From: a bacterium
GTDB taxonomy: Bacteria; UBA6262; WVXT01
Length of the DNA stretch: 20,318 nt
NCBI GenBank assembly: GCA_046759165.1
Contig: JBHIBS010000027.1
Span: forward strand, 1 to 20,318
Direction: 5' to 3'
The notes beneath the pieces were generated by a model, which worked only from the letters and a program-made list of their open reading frames with translations, made no database searches and was not told where the DNA came from. A program made the translations under genes and the position numbers. How positions within the stretch are numbered: the first letter of the stretch is position 1; the number at the start of each line of letters is the position of its first letter. Of the stretch, positions 1 to 20,318 are shown one piece after another.

Positions 1-1
1 C

Positions 2-28
2 GCCTGCGAGTCGGTGAGCAGGCAGGTC
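2..28. repeat. Partial copy (second hairpin only, cut by the window edge) of double-hairpin element A
   Basis: GCCTGC-GAGTCGGTGA-GCAGGC followed by AGGTC. It has the same 10-nt GAGNYGGTGA loop and 6-bp stem geometry as 14464-14485 and 20207-20228. Confidence 0.75.
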
Positions 29-60
29 ACCGAGTGAAGCGAAGCGAAAGGAGGGGAGGA

Positions 61-975
61 TTGAAAGGGAAAAGTATTGTACTTATTCTGGTATTACTGG
101 TTCTTGGTCTGGTCACCTACAGGGTAGTAGAGTATAACATAGCAAAAAGAAGCATAAAGGAATCTCCGGAAGAAAAGGTCACTTCAATTAAGACTGTTCG
201 GTCGACAAGAGGAGATATAGAAGAGATAATATCTCTCAACGGCGATATTCGCGGATTGAGGGAAGTGGACGTCTATACAAGGGTTTCGGGGAAGTTAATT
301 GAGAAGGTTAAGGAGGAGGGGCAGAATGTTAAAAAGGGCGAAGTCGTCGCTCTGATTGACCGCGATGAACCTGCTTTAGGATTTACAAAAGCGGAAGTGA
401 GAGCGCCTATTAGTGGGACGCTTATCAGATACTATGTTGATATAGGTGACTCCGTCATCCCTCAGGAACCAATGCCTCAGGAGCCCGTTCTGAATATTGC
501 TTATATGGATAAAGTTAGGATTGTGGTTAATGTGGGAGAGAAGGATATTTCTAAAGTGAGAAAAGGAGAGAAGGTACGCATCTCCGTCGATGCTTACCCG
601 GGAGAAAGTTTCCTGGGCACGGTTGTGAAAGTTGCTCCGGCGGTGGATCCCAGGAGTAGAAAACTGAAAGTTGAGCTGGAGATTGAGAACAAAGACCACA
701 GGTTGAAGCCGGGAATGTTTGCTGATGTAGAGATAATATATAGGGAACATAGGAATGTATTGGTTGTACCCAGAATTGCAGTTCTGGAAAGGGAAGGGAG
801 GAAGGTTCTGTTTACGGTTGAAGGTGATCGCGCTAATTTGAGAGAGGTCAGGACTGGGGTTAGTGACGGAGAGAAAATAGAGATTGTTGAGGGATTAACT
901 AAAGGGGAGAGTGTGATTGTCGAGGGCAATTATGGGTTGACTGATGGAGCAAAAGTAGAAGTGGGAGGCATCTGA
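61..975 (+). CDS. Efflux RND transporter periplasmic adaptor (membrane fusion protein)
   Basis: Single N-terminal TM anchor, lipoyl-like halves (RVSGKLIEKVKEEGQNVKKGE, VRAPISGT), LKPGMFADV and IVEGLTKGESVIVEG motifs. Its stop overlaps the permease start (TGATG). Start moved from GTG 34 to TTG 61 because GGAGG lies at 50-54. Confidence 0.92.
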   Translation: MKGKSIVLILVLLVLGLVTYRVVEYNIAKRSIKESPEEKVTSIKTVRSTRGDIEEIISLNGDIRGLREVDVYTRVSGKLIEKVKEEGQNVKKGEVVALIDRDEPALGFTKAEVRAPISGTLIRYYVDIGDSVIPQEPMPQEPVLNIAYMDKVRIVVNVGEKDISKVRKGEKVRISVDAYPGESFLGTVVKVAPAVDPRSRKLKVELEIENKDHRLKPGMFADVEIIYREHRNVLVVPRIAVLEREGRKVLFTVEGDRANLREVRTGVSDGEKIEIVEGLTKGESVIVEGNYGLTDGAKVEVGGI

Positions 976-3900
976 TGAAGCTACCTGAATTTTCTGTTGA
1001 GCGCCCGGTAACTATAACTATGCTCATTCTAATTGTTGTAGTGGTTGGTGCTATCTCTTTGAGCAATTTGGGGCTCGACCTGATGCCTGATATAACCTAT
1101 CCCGTGATGTCAGTAGTTACTTCCTACGAAGGTGTGGCTTCTGAAGAGATGGAGAACTTGGTGACAAAACCTATTGAGGAGGTGGTAGCTACTGTAAAGA
1201 ATGTGAAGAAGGTTAAGTCTTTTTCTCAGGAAGCCTTATCTGTGGTAATGGCGGAGTTTGAGTGGGGAGCCAATTTAGACCTGTTGGCTCAGGATATTAG
1301 GGACAGGCTGGATATGATTAGTGATTTTCTTCCCGAGGATATGGATAAACCAATAGTAGTGAAGTTTGACCCTTCTATGATGCCTGTAAGTGCATTTGGG
1401 ATTGTGGGAAAGAGGGACTTAAGAAGCCTTCGCCAGCTGACTAAAGATGTCTTTAAGGACAGCTTGGAACAGGTAGATGGAGTTGCCTCGGCAATGGTTT
1501 GGGGAGGAAGGGAGAGAGAGGTGAGAGTGGAAGTCGACCGGAAGAAGCTGGAGTCTTTAGGCCTTTCCTTAGGAGAGGTTAGCCGGAAACTGGCTCTGGA
1601 AAATCTCAACCTTCCAGCTGGTCACCTCAAATCAGGCTACCAGGAATATCTTCTGCGCACTGTAGGTGAATTTGAGTCTGTTGACGAGATCAGGGACATA
1701 GTGATTACTCTCAGAGGGAATGTTCCCATATATTTGAAGGATATTGCCACGGTTTCTGATACCTATCGAGATGTTCGTAGTTACGCCCGCACCAATAAAA
1801 GGAATAGCGTGCTGGTCGTAGTGAACAAGGAATCGGGAGCCAATACTGTGGCAGTTTCTAACGGTGTGAATAGAGCGCTTAAGGAGTTAAAAGGGAAACT
1901 TCCTCAAGATATAAAGTTCTATACTGTTTTCGACCAATCACGAATGATAAAGAGAATCCTTAAGGTGACTGGCTCAAATGCTATTTTAGGTGGTTTTCTG
2001 GCGGTTGTGATTCTCTTTCTTTTCTTGCATAATTTCCGTCCAACAATTGCCATAGCGTTAGCAATTCCCCTTTCTTTGATAGCCACTTTTATTCCTTTAT
2101 ATTTTCTCGGGTATACTCTCAACTTTATCACTATGATTGGAATTGCTCTGGGAGTAGGAATGATTGTGGATAATGGGATTGTGGTGATTGAGAACACTTT
2201 TCGCCATCTGAGCCTTGGTGAAGACTCGAGGATTTCGGCCAAATTAGGTGCCACTGAAGTGAGTAGGGCCATTACTACCTCAACTCTCACTACTGTGGCG
2301 GTCTTTCTACCGCTTCTATTCATAAAGGGAATTGCAGGGAAGCTCTTTACTCAGATGGCTCTAACCATATCTTTTGCCTTGGTTGCTTCCTTATTTGTGG
2401 CTCTGACTCTGGTGCCAATGATGGCTTCTAAGATTTTCAAGACAGGTCCAGCTAAAGGTTACGAGGTCAGTTTTGGGAGAAGAACTTTTAGTTATTTTAG
2501 AGAGAGATATAAAGGATTTTTACATAAGGTATTGGCTCGTCGGAAAAGAGTAGTCTTTTGGGCAATTATCCTCTTTTTAGTGAGTCTGGGTCTAATTCCC
2601 TTCATGGGGAAAGAGTTCTTTCCCAGTATAGACAATAATATGGCTTTTTCTATGGTAAAGATGCCTGTGGGAACCAATTTAGAGGAGACCGATAAGGTGG
2701 TCGGAAAGATTGAGGATATTATCCTGGCAGAGGAGGGTGTTCAGACTGTGGGTACTTACATTGGTCTCTCCGAGGGAACAAAACAGGATGCAGCTTTTGG
2801 TTGGGGGGCGACGGGAGTAAACGAAGCAGAAATTTTCATTCGCTTGGAAGATAAATTGAAGAGAAAACGCATTTCTAAAGAGATTGTTAATGATATTCGA
2901 GCTCAACTTCCCCAGATAGAAGGAGCTAAATATGAATTTATGGATATGGCTCAGTCGATGATTACGGGAGGAGGTGCTCGGGAGGCTTCTATTGAGCTTA
3001 AACTCTTTGGCAAAGACCTGGGGATACTGGAAAATGTTTCCCGAGTAATTATGGGAGCGATAGGGAAAATTGAGGGAGTCTATGATTTAGCAAGTTCCCT
3101 GGAGAAGGGAAGGCCAGAACTACAAATTATAATTGACCGTCAACGTGCATCCCAGCTGGGATTGACTGTTAGTCAAATTGCCTCTACATTGCAAACGGCG
3201 GTTCAGGGAAAGGTGGCTACATTGTTTCGCCAGGGAGGGGAAGAAGTTAATATCCGGGTCTCTCTTGATGAAAGGGGCAGAGGAAATCTCAAGGAGATTG
3301 AGAATATAATTCTTCCTTCTCCTCTGGGAGTGCTCGTGCGTTTGCAAGATGTTGCGGATATTCGAGAGGCTAGAGGACCGATAAGGTTGAATAGAGAGAA
3401 CCAGAAAAGAATGGTCTCTTTAACTGCTAATCTCGGTGGCAGACACTTGTCAAAGGTAATAAAGGATGTAAAGAATAAGATAAGAAGAGTTGCTTTCCCG
3501 GAGGGCTACTTTGTCGACTATGGAGGACAAGCTGAGAAGATGCGAGAGACATTTGTAAGTTTAAGTCAGATACTTATTTTGGCGGTGCTTTTAGTATTTA
3601 TGATTATGGCAGCACAATTTGAGTCTTTTACCCAGCCATTGGTTATTATGTTTACTGTTCCCCTCGCTTTAATTGGAGTTATCTTGGCTATTGTCATCAG
3701 CGGAAAGACTCTCTCCCTTCCCTCAGGTATAGGAGTAGTTGTCCTTGCTGGAATTATAGTAAATAATGGTATTGTTATGATTGATTACGTTAACCAATTG
3801 CGTAAGAAAGGAATGGAGAAGATGGAAGCAATCATCGAGGGTGCGGGGACGAGATTACGTCCGATTCTAATGACTGCTTCTACTACTATTCTGGCGATAC

Positions 3901-4037
3901 TTCCGCTAGCTATTAACCGTGCCGAAGGTTCAGCAGCGCGCTCGGTGGTAGCTGTCTCTATAATGGGTGGATTGCTTGTCGGGTCTATTCTCACGCTGAT
4001 AGTCATTCCCGCTCTTTATAGTCTATTCGAAAAGTGA
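975..4037 (+). CDS. Efflux RND transporter permease (AcrB/AcrD/AcrF family)
   Basis: 1020 aa with the two-repeat RND topology. Motifs include ERPVT, GMIVDNGIVVIEN, TTVAVFLP, GIIVNNGIVMID and TRLRPILMT. Confidence 0.96.
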   Translation: MKLPEFSVERPVTITMLILIVVVVGAISLSNLGLDLMPDITYPVMSVVTSYEGVASEEMENLVTKPIEEVVATVKNVKKVKSFSQEALSVVMAEFEWGANLDLLAQDIRDRLDMISDFLPEDMDKPIVVKFDPSMMPVSAFGIVGKRDLRSLRQLTKDVFKDSLEQVDGVASAMVWGGREREVRVEVDRKKLESLGLSLGEVSRKLALENLNLPAGHLKSGYQEYLLRTVGEFESVDEIRDIVITLRGNVPIYLKDIATVSDTYRDVRSYARTNKRNSVLVVVNKESGANTVAVSNGVNRALKELKGKLPQDIKFYTVFDQSRMIKRILKVTGSNAILGGFLAVVILFLFLHNFRPTIAIALAIPLSLIATFIPLYFLGYTLNFITMIGIALGVGMIVDNGIVVIENTFRHLSLGEDSRISAKLGATEVSRAITTSTLTTVAVFLPLLFIKGIAGKLFTQMALTISFALVASLFVALTLVPMMASKIFKTGPAKGYEVSFGRRTFSYFRERYKGFLHKVLARRKRVVFWAIILFLVSLGLIPFMGKEFFPSIDNNMAFSMVKMPVGTNLEETDKVVGKIEDIILAEEGVQTVGTYIGLSEGTKQDAAFGWGATGVNEAEIFIRLEDKLKRKRISKEIVNDIRAQLPQIEGAKYEFMDMAQSMITGGGAREASIELKLFGKDLGILENVSRVIMGAIGKIEGVYDLASSLEKGRPELQIIIDRQRASQLGLTVSQIASTLQTAVQGKVATLFRQGGEEVNIRVSLDERGRGNLKEIENIILPSPLGVLVRLQDVADIREARGPIRLNRENQKRMVSLTANLGGRHLSKVIKDVKNKIRRVAFPEGYFVDYGGQAEKMRETFVSLSQILILAVLLVFMIMAAQFESFTQPLVIMFTVPLALIGVILAIVISGKTLSLPSGIGVVVLAGIIVNNGIVMIDYVNQLRKKGMEKMEAIIEGAGTRLRPILMTASTTILAILPLAINRAEGSAARSVVAVSIMGGLLVGSILTLIVIPALYSLFEK

Positions 4038-8107: not shown

Positions 8108-8160
8108 GTCTCGATTTTCCATCGAGACACTTGAGAGGATTCCACGGAGTGGAAGCTGAT
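8108..8160 (+). repeat. tRNA-abutting two-hairpin element B, copy 1
   Basis: GTCTCGAT/ATCGAGAC hairpin, ACTTGAGAGG linker, TTCCAC-GGA-GTGGAA hairpin, then GCTGAT and the tRNA. 23/32 identical to 16173-16204. Confidence 0.7.
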
Positions 8161-8237
<77 letters not shown>

Positions 8238-8271
8238 GATAAGACAAGGGAGTTTTAAATATATATCTTTT

Positions 8272-13174: not shown

Positions 13175-14311
13175 ATGAAAAAATATCTTTTAACGCCAGG
13201 TCCCACTCCTGTTCCGGAAAGGGTGCTTTTAGCCTTAGCTCAGCCAATTATTCATCACAGAACTCCGGAGTGCGGTCAAGTTCTTTCTGAAGATATAGAA
13301 GGTCTGAAATACGTATTTCAAACGAAAAACGACCTTTTGATTTTTACAGCTTCAGGAACTGGCGCGATGGAGGCCTGCGTGGTTAACCTCCTCTCTCCGC
13401 AAGACAAAGTTTTAATTGTTAATACTGGTGCGTTTGGCAGAAGATGGGTAAATATTATTAAGTCATTTGGAATTGAGCCAGAAGTTATTGAATATCCCTG
13501 GGGTAGAGTAGCCAGGTCCAAGGATGTGGAGAAGAAACTAAAGGATATACCAGGAATTAAAGCTGTATTTACACAAAATACAGAAACCTCAACGGGTGTG
13601 GTCAACAATATTGAGACAATTGGCAGGATAGTGGCAGGAACGGAGGCTGTCTTGGTAGTCGATGCGATAAGTGGGCTAGGGGGACAGGAGATGAAGACCG
13701 ACGAGTGGAATGTAGATGTGGTAGCGAGTGGTTCTCAGAAAGGGCTGATGCTCCCCCCAGGATTGGCTTTTGTCAGTATTAGCCAGAAGGCTTGGAAACT
13801 TGTAGGAAATTCTAAGTTGCCAAAGTTTTACTGGGACTTTAAGGCATACAAGAAGTTTCTCGAGGAGAAAAAACAGACACCCTACACTTCGGCAGTGGGC
13901 TTGTTGCTGGGATTGCAGGAATCTTTGAGAATGATAAAAGAAGAAGGGCTGGACCAAATCTTACGGCGCCATGCGATCTTGGCTTCTGCTACAAGAGCAG
14001 GAGTGGAGGCAATGGGTTTAGAGCTCTTCGCAGAGGCTCCTTGCAATGTGGTTACAGCAGTTAAGGTGCCGGAAGGAATCGATGGAGTGCGGCTGGTTAA
14101 AATGATGCGTGATGAGTATGGAGTTGGAATTGCTGGCGGTCAAAGAGAATATAGAGGCAAGATTTTCCGCATTGCACATCTGGGCTACATGGATAGATTT
14201 GATGTAATAATCGGGCTTTCGGCTCTGGAAGTAGCATTGAGTAAACTAGGATATAATATCGAAGCAGGAAAAGGGATAGCTGCGGCAGAGAAGGAATTCC
14301 TGAAAATATAG
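13175..14311 (+). CDS. Class-V PLP aminotransferase (alanine-glyoxylate/serine-pyruvate family), probably serving as phosphoserine aminotransferase
   Basis: LLTPGPTPVP, SGTGAME, ETSTGV, VDAIS, SQKGLMLPPG (PLP lysine) and FRIAHLG. The SerC role is inferred from adjacency to serA. Confidence 0.88.
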   Translation: MKKYLLTPGPTPVPERVLLALAQPIIHHRTPECGQVLSEDIEGLKYVFQTKNDLLIFTASGTGAMEACVVNLLSPQDKVLIVNTGAFGRRWVNIIKSFGIEPEVIEYPWGRVARSKDVEKKLKDIPGIKAVFTQNTETSTGVVNNIETIGRIVAGTEAVLVVDAISGLGGQEMKTDEWNVDVVASGSQKGLMLPPGLAFVSISQKAWKLVGNSKLPKFYWDFKAYKKFLEEKKQTPYTSAVGLLLGLQESLRMIKEEGLDQILRRHAILASATRAGVEAMGLELFAEAPCNVVTAVKVPEGIDGVRLVKMMRDEYGVGIAGGQREYRGKIFRIAHLGYMDRFDVIIGLSALEVALSKLGYNIEAGKGIAAAEKEFLKI

Positions 14312-14321
14312 TTAAGGCTCT

Positions 14322-14345
14322 GTAGGATTCGATTTGTCGAACCCG
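14322..14345 (+). repeat. GTAG-type REP-like palindrome
   Basis: GTAG followed by an imperfect palindrome, GGATTCGA-TTTG-TCGAACCC. A related copy lies on the minus strand at 17887-17910. Confidence 0.5.
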
Positions 14346-14424
14346 TAATTGGATCTAGCTCGAGAGCGAAGTTCTGCTTTATAAATGAACTGATTCACTT
14401 AGATAATAACCCTGTGCGGAAGGG

Positions 14425-14485
14425 GTCGCTGGAGCGACGAATAAGGAGCTCCGTGTTAGCGACGGGCGCGAGACGGTGAGCGCCC
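14425..14485. repeat. Double-hairpin element A, full copy
   Basis: GTCGCT-GGAGC-GACGAATAAGGA-GCTCC-GTGTT-AGCGAC-GGGCGC-GAGACGGTGA-GCGCCC. 48/61 identical to 20168-20228, with all stem changes compensatory. Confidence 0.85.
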
Positions 14486-14538
14486 CGGGTTGAGGTTTCC
14501 CCTATTGAGCACAGGCTGATTCACATAAGGAGGTTTTC

Positions 14539-16119
14539 GTGAAGGTATTAGTTAGCGATAATTTAGCGGAAGAAGGTATAGAGTTATTGAGGGGAAATCC
14601 CAATATTACAGTTGATGTAAAGCCTAAAATGGAATCGCAAGAGTTGATAAAGCACATCAGCGAATACGATGCTCTTCTTGTGCGAAGTGCAACTAAGGTG
14701 ACGGGAGAGGTAATCGACGCAGCAAAGAATTTGAAAGTCATTGGACGAGCGGGAGTGGGAGTGGATAATATCGATGTTGAGGCAGCAAGTAGGAGGGGTA
14801 TCCTGGTAATGAATACGCCCGGCGGAAATACCATTTCTGCAGCAGAACATACAATGAGTATGCTCTTAGCATTATCCCGCTGTATTCCCCAGGCTAACGT
14901 ATCCCTGAAGAGTAGGCAGTGGGAAAAGAAAAAATTCCTAGGAACCGAAATTTTCAAAAAGACCCTGGGCATAGTCGGAGTGGGTAGAATCGGAGCTGAA
15001 GTTGCAAAAAGGGCGCAGTCTTTCGGAATGGAGATAATAGCTTACGATCCCTATATTTCTAAGGCCCATGCGCGAGAGATTGGCGTTAAATTGGTTAGTT
15101 TTCCGGAACTTATTAAACAGGCAGACTATATAACAATTCATGTTCCATTAACTTCTGAAACTAAACACATATTTAATAGAGAAACCATCAATCAGATGAA
15201 GGAAGGAGTGAAGATTATAAATTGTGCTCGTGGTGGAATCATAGATGAAGCTGCCTTAGCAGAAGGAGTGAAGTCAGGTAAGATTGGTGGGGCAGCTCTC
15301 GATGTTTTTGAGAATGAACCACCTTTTGATAGTCCCATTTTGGGTTTGGAGAATATAATTGTTACACCACATTTGGGAGCTTCAACCGAAGAGGCTCAGA
15401 TTAACGTGGCAAGAGATATTGCACTGCAAGTTTTAGATTTTCTTAACAAAGGCATTGTTCGCAATGCAGTTAACATGCCAGAATTAGACCCTGAGAAAAT
15501 GAAGACCTTGGGTCCCTATATCGGTCTTTGTGAGAAATTAGGGAGGTTACAGGCCCAGATAGGCGAGGGAGGGTTTACTCAGATTGTCGTCCAATACTCA
15601 GGAGAGATTCTCCATCACGAGATTAAGCCTTTAACCATTGCACTGCTTAAGGGGCTTCTGGAGCCAATTTTGGAAAGGGAAGTCAATTTTGTCAACGCTC
15701 CTTTAATTGTCCAGGAGAGGGGGATTAAAGTTATCGAGTCTAAAGTGAGCAAGGTGGAAGATTTTGCCAACTTAATAGTGGTCCAGGCAATGACAGAAAA
15801 AGGTGAGAATACGGTTACCGGGACTCTTCTGGGGAAGAAAGAGCCTCGTCTGGTAAGAATTGGCGAGTTCGATTTGGACGTTATTCCTGAAGGATATATG
15901 CTACTCTGTTCAAATTTGGACAAGCCGGGAGTAATTGGTAAAATAGGAACAATTTTGGGAAATAGAAAGATTAATATAGCCGGGATGCAGGTAGGGAGAA
16001 AAACAGTTGGTGGAAAAGCGCTAACCATCATTAATGTAGATTGTAATATTTCAAAAGAGGTTTTAAAAGAGATAGAAGGTATAGCCGAAATCCTCGAAGT
16101 AAAAATGGTAAACCTTTAA
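14539..16119 (+). CDS. serA: D-3-phosphoglycerate dehydrogenase (long form with ASB and ACT domains)
   Basis: RAGVGVDNID, GVGRIG, NCARGGII, DVFENEPP and TPHLGASTEEAQ motifs. C-terminal ACT domain (DKPGVIGKIGTILG..INIAGM). GTG start with a TAAGGAGGT RBS. Confidence 0.97.
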   Translation: MKVLVSDNLAEEGIELLRGNPNITVDVKPKMESQELIKHISEYDALLVRSATKVTGEVIDAAKNLKVIGRAGVGVDNIDVEAASRRGILVMNTPGGNTISAAEHTMSMLLALSRCIPQANVSLKSRQWEKKKFLGTEIFKKTLGIVGVGRIGAEVAKRAQSFGMEIIAYDPYISKAHAREIGVKLVSFPELIKQADYITIHVPLTSETKHIFNRETINQMKEGVKIINCARGGIIDEAALAEGVKSGKIGGAALDVFENEPPFDSPILGLENIIVTPHLGASTEEAQINVARDIALQVLDFLNKGIVRNAVNMPELDPEKMKTLGPYIGLCEKLGRLQAQIGEGGFTQIVVQYSGEILHHEIKPLTIALLKGLLEPILEREVNFVNAPLIVQERGIKVIESKVSKVEDFANLIVVQAMTEKGENTVTGTLLGKKEPRLVRIGEFDLDVIPEGYMLLCSNLDKPGVIGKIGTILGNRKINIAGMQVGRKTVGGKALTIINVDCNISKEVLKEIEGIAEILEVKMVNL

Positions 16120-16153: not shown

Positions 16154-16204
16154 GGGAGAACCACGTTCTCCCACTTGGGAGGTTTCTGCGGAGCAGAAAC
16201 CGAC
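16154..16204 (+). repeat. tRNA-abutting two-hairpin element B, copy 2
   Basis: GGGAGAAC/GTTCTCCC hairpin, ACTTGGGA linker, GGTTTCTGC-GGA-GCAGAAACC hairpin, then GAC and the tRNA. Confidence 0.7.
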
Positions 16205-16278
16205 GAGCCGGTAGCTCAGCTAGGTAGAGCAGCGGCCTTTTAAGCCGTTGGTCGCGCGTTCGATTCGCGCCCGGCTCA
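16205..16278 (+). tRNA. tRNA-Lys(UUU), CCA not encoded
   Basis: GAGCCGG/CCGGCTC acceptor stem, GCGGC-CT-TTT-AA-GCCGT anticodon arm, GCGCG-TTCGATT-CGCGC T-arm. Confidence 0.94.
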
Positions 16279-16367
16279 TTAAAAAAGACAGACAAAAACC
16301 CGAATCTGCTTACAAATGAATGAGGAATTATTAAAATCGTATTGTCAGGCGTATAAGATAAGAGAAG

Positions 16368-19155: not shown

Positions 19156-20031
19156 ATGATAAAAAATTATGTAAGGTTAATAAGGCCAAAACACTGGGTA
19201 AAGAATTTATTTCTGTTTCTACCGTTATTGTTCGGCTTGCAGATATTCAATCCCAAAAGTTTATTAACTGCTAGTGTAGCATTTGTCAGTTTTTGTTTTG
19301 CTGCAAGTAGTATATATATATTCAATGACATCATGGATTTGCAAAGTGACAGATTCCACCCAATAAAAAAGCATCGTCCATTAGCTTCTGGAGAAATAAA
19401 TGTCACTACTGCGTACATAATTTCTACTGTTCTGGCGTTAATGAGCCTATTCCTGGGCTTTTTTTGCAATATAGGATTTGTCTTGGTAGTAGTTACATAT
19501 ATGGGAATTAATATACTTTATTCTATTTATCTCAAGAATGTTGTTATCCTAGATGTATTTATAATAGCATTAGGATTTGTATTGAGGATAGTAGCTGGCT
19601 CTGTTGCTACAAATATATATATGTCAAAATGGATACTATTATGTGGCTTTACGCTTTCTCTTTTTTTAGGGTTTACCAAAAGAAGAGCAGAAATGGTAGA
19701 ATTGGGAGAAGGTTTTGTTTCTCATAGAGCAGTATTGTCTCATTATAACCCGTATTTTTTAGATACTATGATAAATATAGTGAATTCTTTAACTGTTATT
19801 ACTTACTTATTCTATACAATAGATTCAACAACAACTGCTAAATTTGGAAATAAGCTATTTCTATCATTGCCAATAGTTTTATATGGTATTTTTAGGTACC
19901 AATATCTTATTTATCACAAAGGAAAAAGTAGTAGTCCCACAGAAAATTTCCTTACTGATATTCCATTATTATCTGCTGTTATAATCTGGGCGATTTTTTG
20001 TGGTGGAATAATTTTTTTCAAAATTAGGTAG
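19156..20031 (+). CDS. UbiA-family decaprenyl-phosphate phosphoribosyltransferase-like protein
   Basis: RPKHWVKN, NDIMD...DRFHPIKKHRPLASG, YSIYLK, GFVLR..AG, KRRAE and YGIFRY are typical of the Rv3806c-like subfamily. Confidence 0.88.
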   Translation: MIKNYVRLIRPKHWVKNLFLFLPLLFGLQIFNPKSLLTASVAFVSFCFAASSIYIFNDIMDLQSDRFHPIKKHRPLASGEINVTTAYIISTVLALMSLFLGFFCNIGFVLVVVTYMGINILYSIYLKNVVILDVFIIALGFVLRIVAGSVATNIYMSKWILLCGFTLSLFLGFTKRRAEMVELGEGFVSHRAVLSHYNPYFLDTMINIVNSLTVITYLFYTIDSTTTAKFGNKLFLSLPIVLYGIFRYQYLIYHKGKSSSPTENFLTDIPLLSAVIIWAIFCGGIIFFKIR

Positions 20032-20066
20032 TAAAATATTAATCAAATTCAACAGCAACCAAGCGT

Positions 20067-20092
20067 GCGTGTTCGATTCGCGGTCGGGTCAT
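20067..20092 (+). repeat. Decayed duplicate of the tRNA-Lys(UUU) 3' end (att-like)
   Basis: GCGTGTTCGATTCGCGGTCGGGTCAT versus GCGCGTTCGATTCGCGCCCGGCTCAT (16254-16279), 22/26 identical. Confidence 0.75.
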
Positions 20093-20127
20093 ATGATGTA
20101 AGATTTTATGGGATTTTGATAGAACTT

Positions 20128-20165
20128 GTCCCCGTCGACTAGTGGTTAGGTCACCACTCTTTCAA
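20128..20165 (+). pseudogene. 5' half of tRNA-Glu(UUC), interrupted after the anticodon loop
   Basis: GTCCCCG-TC-GACTAGTGGTTAGGTC-A-CCACT-CT-TTC-AA. No T-arm or 3' acceptor strand follows. Confidence 0.75.
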
Positions 20166-20167
20166 GG

Positions 20168-20228
20168 GTCGCTGTTCCGACGAATAAGGAGGAACGTGAC
20201 AGCGACGCCCGCGAGATGGTGAGCGGGC
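20168..20228. repeat. Double-hairpin element A, full copy inside the tRNA-Glu remnant
   Basis: GTCGCT-GTTCC-GACGAATAAGGA-GGAAC-GTGAC-AGCGAC-GCCCGC-GAGATGGTGA-GCGGGC. Confidence 0.85.
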
Positions 20229-20296
20229 GGGTCCACTGCAGAAAGAGTGGCGGGATATATAGAGATGTAAGATTTTATGGGATTTTGATAGAACTT

Positions 20297-20318
20297 GTCC
20301 CCGTCGACTAGTGGTTAG
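20297..20318 (+). tRNA. Start of a second tRNA-Glu copy, truncated by the window end
   Basis: The first 22 nt are identical to 20128-20149. The anticodon is not visible, so identity is inferred from the upstream copy. Confidence 0.5.

Follow-up and report, generated by a model that had tools for sequence, protein, structure and literature searches.

A double hairpin with two near-invariant loops as the conserved core of a mobile-looking intergenic repeat

The window and its copies of the double hairpin

The window analysed here is the whole of contig C27 (20,318 nucleotides) of a 165-contig draft genome, G000, with a size of 1.885 Mb, a G+C content of 42% and a completeness of 92%. At its start, the genes of an HlyD-family adaptor, with a TTG start at position 61, and of an AcrB-type pump occupy positions 61-4037. 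Further downstream, a class-V aminotransferase gene and then serA, encoding phosphoglycerate dehydrogenase, cover positions 13175-16119, around a full copy of a 63-nt double hairpin. This double hairpin, whose two loops are near-invariant, forms the conserved core of an intergenic repeat that looks mobile, and the window contains it twice in full and once in part (Table 1). Elsewhere in the window, a 119-nt direct repeat of 73% identity (8128-8246 and 16172-16290) corresponds to tRNA-Arg and tRNA-Lys(UUU) together with their upstream regions.

Table 1. Repeat modules and tRNA-related pieces in the window
Feature	Position	Strand	Basis or remark
Partial core copy, 3' part of the second hairpin, subfamily A2	1..23	+	Cut by the contig start; matches A2 copies over their 3' part
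Module C, tail after A2 copies	24..60	+	Terminates in the HlyD-family gene's Shine-Dalgarno sequence
Left copy of the 9-nt direct repeat CTGATTCAC bounding the inserted unit	14390..14398	+	Orthologous site of G008: single copy, no unit
Module E, 5' arm of the outer stem	14399..14422	+	Fold; pairs with 14509-14515; recurs before other copies
Full core copy, subfamily A1	14423..14485	+	Covariance model (86.7 bits), alignment, fold
Module B, 3' arm of the outer stem	14486..14533	+	Right CTGATTCAC at 14516-14524; serA Shine-Dalgarno sequence AAGGAGG at 14527-14533
tRNA 3'-end-like fragment (T arm and acceptor strand), no gene	20060..20092	+	85% identity to the 3' end of tRNA-Lys(UUU)
Duplicated upstream region and tRNA-Glu(UUC) bases 1-40	20095..20167	+	Comparison with intact tRNA-Glu on C54
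Full core copy, subfamily A2	20166..20228	+	Covariance model (78.7 bits), alignment
Spacer with a small hairpin, CCACT/AGTGG	20229..20263	+	By eye; about 6 of 35 positions differ from L112
Repeated upstream region, followed by the 5' part of the intact tRNA-Glu gene	20264..20318	+	Continues on contig C54

The core folds into a 6-bp stem (P1) enclosing a 5-bp stem (P2) with a 12-nt loop (loop 1) and a 5-nt bulge on its 3' side, followed by a 6-bp stem (P3) with a 10-nt loop (loop 2). A sequence-only reading of the window had reported two 61-nt copies that match without gaps at 48 positions, and a partial third one. All three are found where that reading had placed them, the partial one being cut by the contig start, and the boundaries of the full copies were corrected to those of Table 1. 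The 48/61 match also holds: by eye, ten of the 13 differing positions pair up as five compensatory changes, with three pairs in the inner stem and two in the second hairpin, and of the remainder two fall in the bulge and one in loop 2. A repeat search of the window likewise aligns 14423-14482 with 20166-20225 without gaps at 82% identity. A conserved G-rich lead-in and a CGG tail widen the first full copy to 14422-14488, and in the computed fold this copy is enclosed by a larger hairpin, with modules E and B as its two arms. Module E holds a -10-like GATAAT. The promoter-like match at 14378-14407 is the only one in the interval 14200-14600, where 0.6 are expected by chance, and a scan of the same interval found no terminator. 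In the A2 copies, 7-9 nt of loop 2 are complementary to the beginning of module C (window positions 8-18 with 27-35); in the A2+C units, as distinct from the other subfamilies, this pairing permits by eye an alternative hairpin that competes with P3.

The second full copy lies among pieces of tRNA genes and had been described as residing inside tRNA-Glu, a description that does not stand. The tRNA-Glu duplicate is broken in the anticodon arm, at a 3-nt AGG overlap with the core. Neither a T arm nor an acceptor 3' strand follows the copy at 20166, ARAGORN reports no tRNA at 20128, and the intact tRNA-Glu(UUC) gene is located downstream at C54:16-90, the start of C54 overlapping the end of C27. 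Therefore, the core is fused to a truncated duplicate and does not form an intron. A split or a permuted tRNA was likewise rejected, since no 3' half follows the copy and the intact gene lies downstream. The contig end carries a 55-nt stretch, including the 33 nt upstream of tRNA-Glu, that is repeated at 100% identity with a spacing of 169. ARAGORN reports no tRNA at 20060-20092, and the spacer at 20229-20263 is possibly a decayed tRNA remnant. The same tRNA-Glu/core fusion occurs in the related genome L112, where the core differs only in the bulge. An analogous tandem involving tRNA-Gly(CCC) is found on contigs C29 and C85, where the series of core copy, 11 nt and first 53 nt of the tRNA is duplicated in tandem before the intact gene; a duplicated 3' fragment lies after this intact gene (C85:1-300 and the end of C29). 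Overall, 7 of the 44 copies in G000 are in tRNA clusters, and three of the 15 loci of an Endomicrobium-labelled genome are fused to 5' fragments of tRNA genes, after which comes the intact tRNA.

Over the 1.885 Mb of G000, iterated nhmmer searches report 44 matches and a covariance model of the core, R1, reports 41 at E<=0.01, in agreement with the genome-wide dispersed family proposed from the window. Many copies are either close to a contig end, at about 150 nt or less, or arranged in direct tandem. Therefore, the element breaks the assembly and the true copy number is probably higher. The family comprises several subfamilies differing by whole-stem swaps, one of which has a longer insert replacing the bulge. 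AAGGAGG borders the A2+C units at either end, and their tandem spacing is about 92 nt. The module C motif AGGTCACCGA[CG]T is found 11 times in the genome, and the end of module B, GATTCACATAAGGAG, occurs in 12 copies, just before start codons. Units made of core and tail occupy the gaps between co-directional genes, immediately before the next gene's Shine-Dalgarno sequence, which the tail itself supplies, and the copies lie 35-55 nt upstream of start codons. With simple ORF calling, element and upstream ORF share a strand in 37/39 copies, element and downstream ORF in 26/28. The gene strand bias of this genome is extreme, with skews of about +/-0.2 over 20-kb stretches. As 1304 of its 1395 ORFs (93%) follow the local GC skew, sense orientation and replication orientation are inseparable there.

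Fold, covariation and loops of the core

The two full copies of the window fold with z-scores of -3.7 and -3.8 as RNA and of about -3 as DNA, and the complementary strand of core copies folds equally well. Wobble pairs, counted as a guide to the strand, amount to about 26 G-U against 30 A-C cells, leaving out the fixed G-U in loop 2, a balance that favours neither strand. RNAalifold independently recovers the same helices from the G000 copies. Covariation was assessed against shuffles at two scales. Within G000, pairing reaches 95.6% over 26 short-form copies, 24 of them distinct, and both sides are changed in 9 of the 19 pairs. Their covariation score is 0.390 compared with 0.124 in shuffles, none of 500 shuffles reaching the observed value, and slid-register controls pair at 47% at most. 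Across phyla, a set of 57 sequences (52 from other genomes and five from G000) is 91.0% paired versus 65.8% in shuffles, 15/19 pairs are changed on both sides, and the score of 0.577, compared with 0.151 in shuffles, is again reached by 0/500. P2 and P3 are about 97.5% paired in this set, with three to four pair types per position, and the lower pairing of P1 (76.8%) results from shifts of the alignment register. The earlier proposal that structure is maintained by compensatory change around fixed loops is thus supported within G000, across phyla and by RNAalifold, the scores of both larger alignments being far above those of the shuffles. As to the features it listed as conserved, the loops are near-fixed, but conservation of the 5-nt bulge is loose when phyla are compared.

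The cross-phylum sequences were gathered with a pattern that fixes both loops and leaves the stems unconstrained, and therefore the invariance of the loops in pattern-collected sets is partly by construction. The copies collected with the model display some variation in the loops, with single changes in loop 1 and two central letters of loop 2 that vary freely. In the copies of the Endomicrobium-labelled genome, loop 2 is shorter by one base, and one natural variant (L195) has a helix inserted in this loop. The loops of the core are the constrained part while the stems drift by compensatory change, and this sequence pattern suggests that the loops may form the recognition surface of a trans-acting factor.

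Each loop opens and closes with GA, so that tandem G.A/A.G pairs would cap each stem in the manner of a K-loop. According to PMC9723947, a K-turn or K-loop consists of a helix with tandem sheared G.A/A.G pairs, on the other side of which are a 3-nt bulge and a helix in the K-turn, or a loop in the K-loop. Both core loops follow this arrangement at the level of the sequence pattern: a stem, GA at either end of the loop, the stem again, and purine-rich letters in the loop. The tandem G.A pairs put forward in the sequence-only reading would fit the sequence pattern of both loops, with the exception of two G000 copies (C33 and C19b) in which the closing G.A/A.G positions of loop 1 are swapped for Watson-Crick G-C/A-T pairs. 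Such a replacement fits with these closing positions facing each other. K-loops occur in archaeal H/ACA and C'/D' RNAs, and the second hairpin matches the apical loop of the archaeal H/ACA RNA Pab91 below threshold (E=2.1). A PF01248 search for the L7Ae family reports 0 matches in the 92%-complete G000, its control search returning hits in 7 of 14 reference genomes. The bacterial YbxF/YlxQ proteins were reportedly found by Baird et al. in 2012 not to bind K-loops. Lastly, the AAGGAG of loop 1 and the GGUGA of loop 2, taken in order, complement UCACCUCCUU of the 3' tail of the G000 16S rRNA; this is a lead only, because it was noticed post hoc and overlaps the GA letters that a K-loop requires.

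The core had not been recognised as a known family in the sequence-only reading, and the searches agree. A scan of the window against Rfam 15 at gathering thresholds reports four tRNAs only. A permissive scan of 14300-14600 and 20000-20318 reports nothing near threshold (all E >= 1.8), the best scores being those of sR35 (9.2 bits for a threshold of 60), CRISPR-DR28 (17.1 for 35) and Pab91 (16.1 for 71). A guanidine-II-like reading, based on ACGR loops, was rejected on account of the freely varying central letters of loop 2. No description of the core was found in open-access article text, and large motif surveys may list it under another name.

Distribution, genomic setting and site turnover

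At the BLAST level, the element is present in 8/8 genomes of the same family, in 0/2 of the sister family and in 0/30 other sampled genomes. In a sample of 151 genomes, R1 reports it in G000, in 8/8 sister genomes and in 1/142 genomes of other families. The sole carrier among these 142, G021, has two copies 158 nt apart (C12:24710-24935). The loop pattern returns at least 113 stretches in GTDB contigs sampled at one genome per species and at least 120 in metagenome contigs. Its search of a viral contig collection, which served as a test for phage-borne copies, gave 0 matches. Among the matches listed, most have Nitrospira/Nitrospiraceae labels, and the others include delta-proteobacterial/Syntrophaceae/Thermodesulfobacteriota, Planctomycetia, Endomicrobia/Elusimicrobia and Omnitrophota labels as well as Firestonebacteria MAGs. 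MAGs labelled Clostridia are also among the matches listed, and their copies match the type of the G000 family. R1 reports 15, 14, 7, 18 and 9 copies in five genomes with other labels (Nitrospira, delta/Syntrophaceae, Planctomycetia, Endomicrobium and Omnitrophota; 7-18 copies each). The distribution is patchy, and the core, which behaves as horizontally spread DNA, is found in several distant phyla.

In every lineage examined, the core forms the tip of a larger imperfect palindrome, which is specific to the lineage and composed of other repeat modules. In the Nitrospira-labelled genome, it tips a palindrome of roughly 230 nt, whose outer inverted repeat has 127 and 130 occurrences versus 0 and 1 for the control; only about 15 of the elements with this outer repeat carry the core. 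In this genome, G041, a 16-nt outer inverted repeat is common to about 128 palindromic elements, many of which abut stop codons and have A-run and T-run arms resembling bidirectional terminators. The delta-labelled copies have a related outer repeat and, after the core, a hairpin plus T-run on the same strand. The Endomicrobium-labelled copies have different outer arms.

The orientation of the core relative to genes also depends on the lineage. In the Nitrospira-labelled genome, where gene calls are Pfam-checked ORFs, the core is antisense in 5/5 co-directional pairs, and the strand of the copies follows replichore-like blocks on a 2.87-Mb contig. Using ORF-based calls only, sense copies prevail 7:1 in the delta-labelled genome and 6:2 in the Endomicrobium-labelled one. 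At 80 metagenome loci, the flanking genes are same/same in 17 cases, opposite/opposite in 13, same/opposite in 10 and opposite/same in 5. These differences between lineages make a single role at the mRNA level doubtful, and a role as ssDNA is likewise only a possibility, skew and gene strand being confounded. The 123 ORFs flanking the 80 metagenome loci are ordinary housekeeping genes, with no transposase, integrase or RT among them and, as nuclease-like neighbours, one HNH protein and two PIN proteins only.

Sister genomes of the same family, in which the first 200 residues of the SerA protein are 87-92% identical, differ in what they have upstream of the same genes. At the serA site, G003 and G006 have an element-free spacer of roughly 50 nt. 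G008 has a longer spacer, with one CTGATTCAC directly before the Shine-Dalgarno sequence and no unit, and G000 has a 126-nt unit (E, core and B) between two CTGATTCAC copies. Other modules are found at this site in G001, G004 and G007. At the site of the HlyD-family gene, the core is absent from G007, G001 and G005. The site is occupied by A2 and module C in G000, by an A3 long-form copy plus a chimeric copy in G008 and, in G003, by a copy that starts exactly at the TAAGGAG of loop 1 and is joined to RBS-like sequence. The two sites are therefore hot spots for the gain, loss and exchange of units, which take place at short repeats coinciding with Shine-Dalgarno sequences. The mobile but non-autonomous behaviour suggested at the outset, together with the empty orthologous sites that it implied, is thus observed at both, since each is empty, filled or occupied by another subfamily among sister genera. 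BLAST also shows that core copies are often 99-100% identical between genera, compared with the 87-92% of the SerA residues, a near-identity that could stem from gene conversion as well. Similarly, the coincidence of the flanking repeats with Shine-Dalgarno sequences could reflect the survival of harmless insertions instead of targeting.

Possible origins and relation to known repeats

From the observed fold, copy number, distribution, site polymorphism and boundaries, we infer a trans-acting factor, a mechanism of spread and a possible effect on expression. We favour, with moderate confidence, a non-autonomous mosaic repeat that is recognised in its folded, single-stranded form, that relies for its spread on recombination or template switching at short repeats and that has RNA-level side effects when it lands in leaders. 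Units would be gained, lost, swapped and tandemly multiplied by such recombination or template switching, and the exchange points would be the short direct repeats that bound the units (AAGGAGG or CTGATTCAC) together with replication forks stalled at the hairpins. The same process would account for the fusions between units and 5' pieces of tRNA genes as well. An inserted unit would then be co-transcribed within a leader or an intercistronic RNA, where its compact structure may alter RNA stability or ribosome loading.

The core might instead be a cis-acting RNA useful to the host, namely a twin K-loop in leaders and intercistronic regions that would tune expression by binding a protein or the 30S subunit or by keeping RNases off, the repeats being only its vehicle. 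We regard this as doubtful. In its favour, the G000 copies are in the sense orientation, 35-55 nt before start codons, and provide the Shine-Dalgarno sequence with their tail. The mostly sense copies of the delta- and Endomicrobium-labelled genomes, the same-strand hairpin plus T-run after the delta-labelled copies and the conservation of the loops across phyla also agree with it, as do the fit of the loops to the K-loop pattern, with the sub-threshold Pab91 match as a weak lead, and the complementarity of the two loops to the 16S tail, subject to the post hoc overlap mentioned above. However, the core is antisense in all five Nitrospira-labelled co-directional pairs and in 13 of 30 metagenome co-directional pairs, orthologous genes of sister genera do without the element, the downstream genes are functionally unrelated, and the PF01248 search found no L7Ae-family gene in the 92%-complete G000.

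A broader version, to which we give somewhat less credence still, is that the core represents a new widespread class of structured RNA, in which a twin K-loop would dock on a universal partner, either, in its most concrete form, by bipartite pairing of loop 1 (AAGGAG) and loop 2 (GGUGA) with the 16S 3' tail or by binding a K-loop-binding protein shared by the carrier phyla. If the pairing with the 16S tail were true, these mosaic repeats would be mobile modules on which ribosomes land or by which they are titrated, and which home to Shine-Dalgarno sites as well.

The core could also be an ssDNA element moved by a Y1 (HUH) transposase, REP/REPIN-like or a miniature derived from IS200/IS605, its hairpins being recognised on the lagging-strand template. 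The sequence-only reading had considered mobilisation by HUH/Y1, IS110 or RT enzymes, and the gene content of G000 speaks against it. Two Y1_Tnp genes and two IS110-type genes are present, no core copy lies beside any of them, and RVT_1 has no match in G000. A RAYT-like Y1_Tnp gene (C4:49700-50500) is flanked by an inverted repeat of about 22 nt that has at least 10 further copies in G000; on C76, one of them takes the place of the initial 10 nt of a core copy. A separate family of palindromic repeats of about 70 nt is found at C5:17390-17500, beside an IS110-type gene, and at about 20 other places in G000; arms of the 'cattgcg...cgcaatg' type, related to this family, flank some Endomicrobium-labelled core copies. 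An ssDNA element would fit with the fold being equally possible as DNA (z about -3), with the patchy distribution, with the two resident Y1_Tnp genes and with a strand that follows replichore-like blocks in the Nitrospira-labelled genome and the local skew in the others. Yet the sign of the strand bias in Nitrospira is opposite to that in the other three genomes, GC skew is confounded with gene orientation, the repeat flanking the C4 gene is a different one, core copies adjoin neither Y1 gene and no Y1 gene is among the 123 neighbouring ORFs. Moreover, the direct repeats flanking the core measure 7-9 nt, or as much as about 70 nt next to tRNA genes, and the IS200/IS605 signature differs from this. 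We therefore hold this origin to be quite improbable. Finally, a small self-cleaving ribozyme or an RNase processing signal carried by the repeats is highly improbable: small ribozyme classes combine small size, conserved unpaired nucleotides, variable stems and patchy multi-copy occurrence, which the core resembles by analogy, and copies are enriched beside tRNA genes in G000 and at the Endomicrobium-labelled loci, but no similarity to an Rfam ribozyme is found and the conserved nucleotides are in terminal loops, with no junction.

Returning to the non-autonomous mosaic repeat, dispersed intergenic repeats are usually confined to one genus or family and defined by their palindromic arms. Here, what is conserved is an asymmetric, covarying double hairpin with near-fixed loops, which several distant phyla carry at 7-40 copies per genome. 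The core points to a trans-acting factor for a folded single strand or to a new route by which small structured modules may spread, a route that would settle them at ribosome-binding sites and tRNA genes. In practice, the core breaks short-read assemblies, many contig ends of G000 being inside copies, and its insertion rewrites the leaders of housekeeping genes; the covariance model R1 now makes its annotation possible.

Among known repeats, the REP and BIME elements of enterobacteria, including the forms centred on an IHF site, are intergenic palindromic mosaics of tens to hundreds of copies that are often located within operons and co-transcribed. By description, the core element resembles them in that short intergenic palindromic units are assembled into mosaics, with a non-palindromic central motif between inverted arms. 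It differs in that the asymmetric tip, not the arms, is the conserved part, that this tip is found in several phyla, and that the RAYT-like genes resident in G000 carry another repeat. In REP/REPIN systems with a RAYT, the Y1 gene is flanked by copies of the repeat, whereas core copies flank neither Y1 gene of G000; a REP is a short simple palindrome typically arranged in inverted doublets, whereas the core has asymmetric hairpins in a fixed order and stands singly or in direct tandem.

MIRU and the pneumococcal BOX are intercistronic, follow the polarity of the flanking genes, form tandems of variable copy number, have a modular build and are restricted to a single genus, and MIRU has small coupling ORFs. 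As described for these, the core units are intercistronic, gene-polar, modular and arranged in tandem (about 92 nt for A2+C); unlike them, they are not confined to a genus and are defined by a covarying two-hairpin core. The likeness to MITEs of the Correia and ERIC type, also by description, lies in the non-autonomous nature, the long imperfect palindromes, the location near gene ends and the presence/absence polymorphism. MITE-like outer inverted repeats are found in the Nitrospira- and delta-labelled forms and outer stems in G000, but they vary by lineage and are also present on core-less elements. Unlike in MITEs, the flanking repeats measure 7, 9, about 20 or about 70 nt depending on the site, no parent IS was found, and the Nitrospira-labelled copies have no target-site duplication. 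The outer repeats differ between lineages and the inner tip is conserved, the reverse of the usual MITE. In kind, the element is closest to the REP/BIME, MIRU/BOX and MITE types, and it is distinguished from them by its covarying, cross-phylum core.
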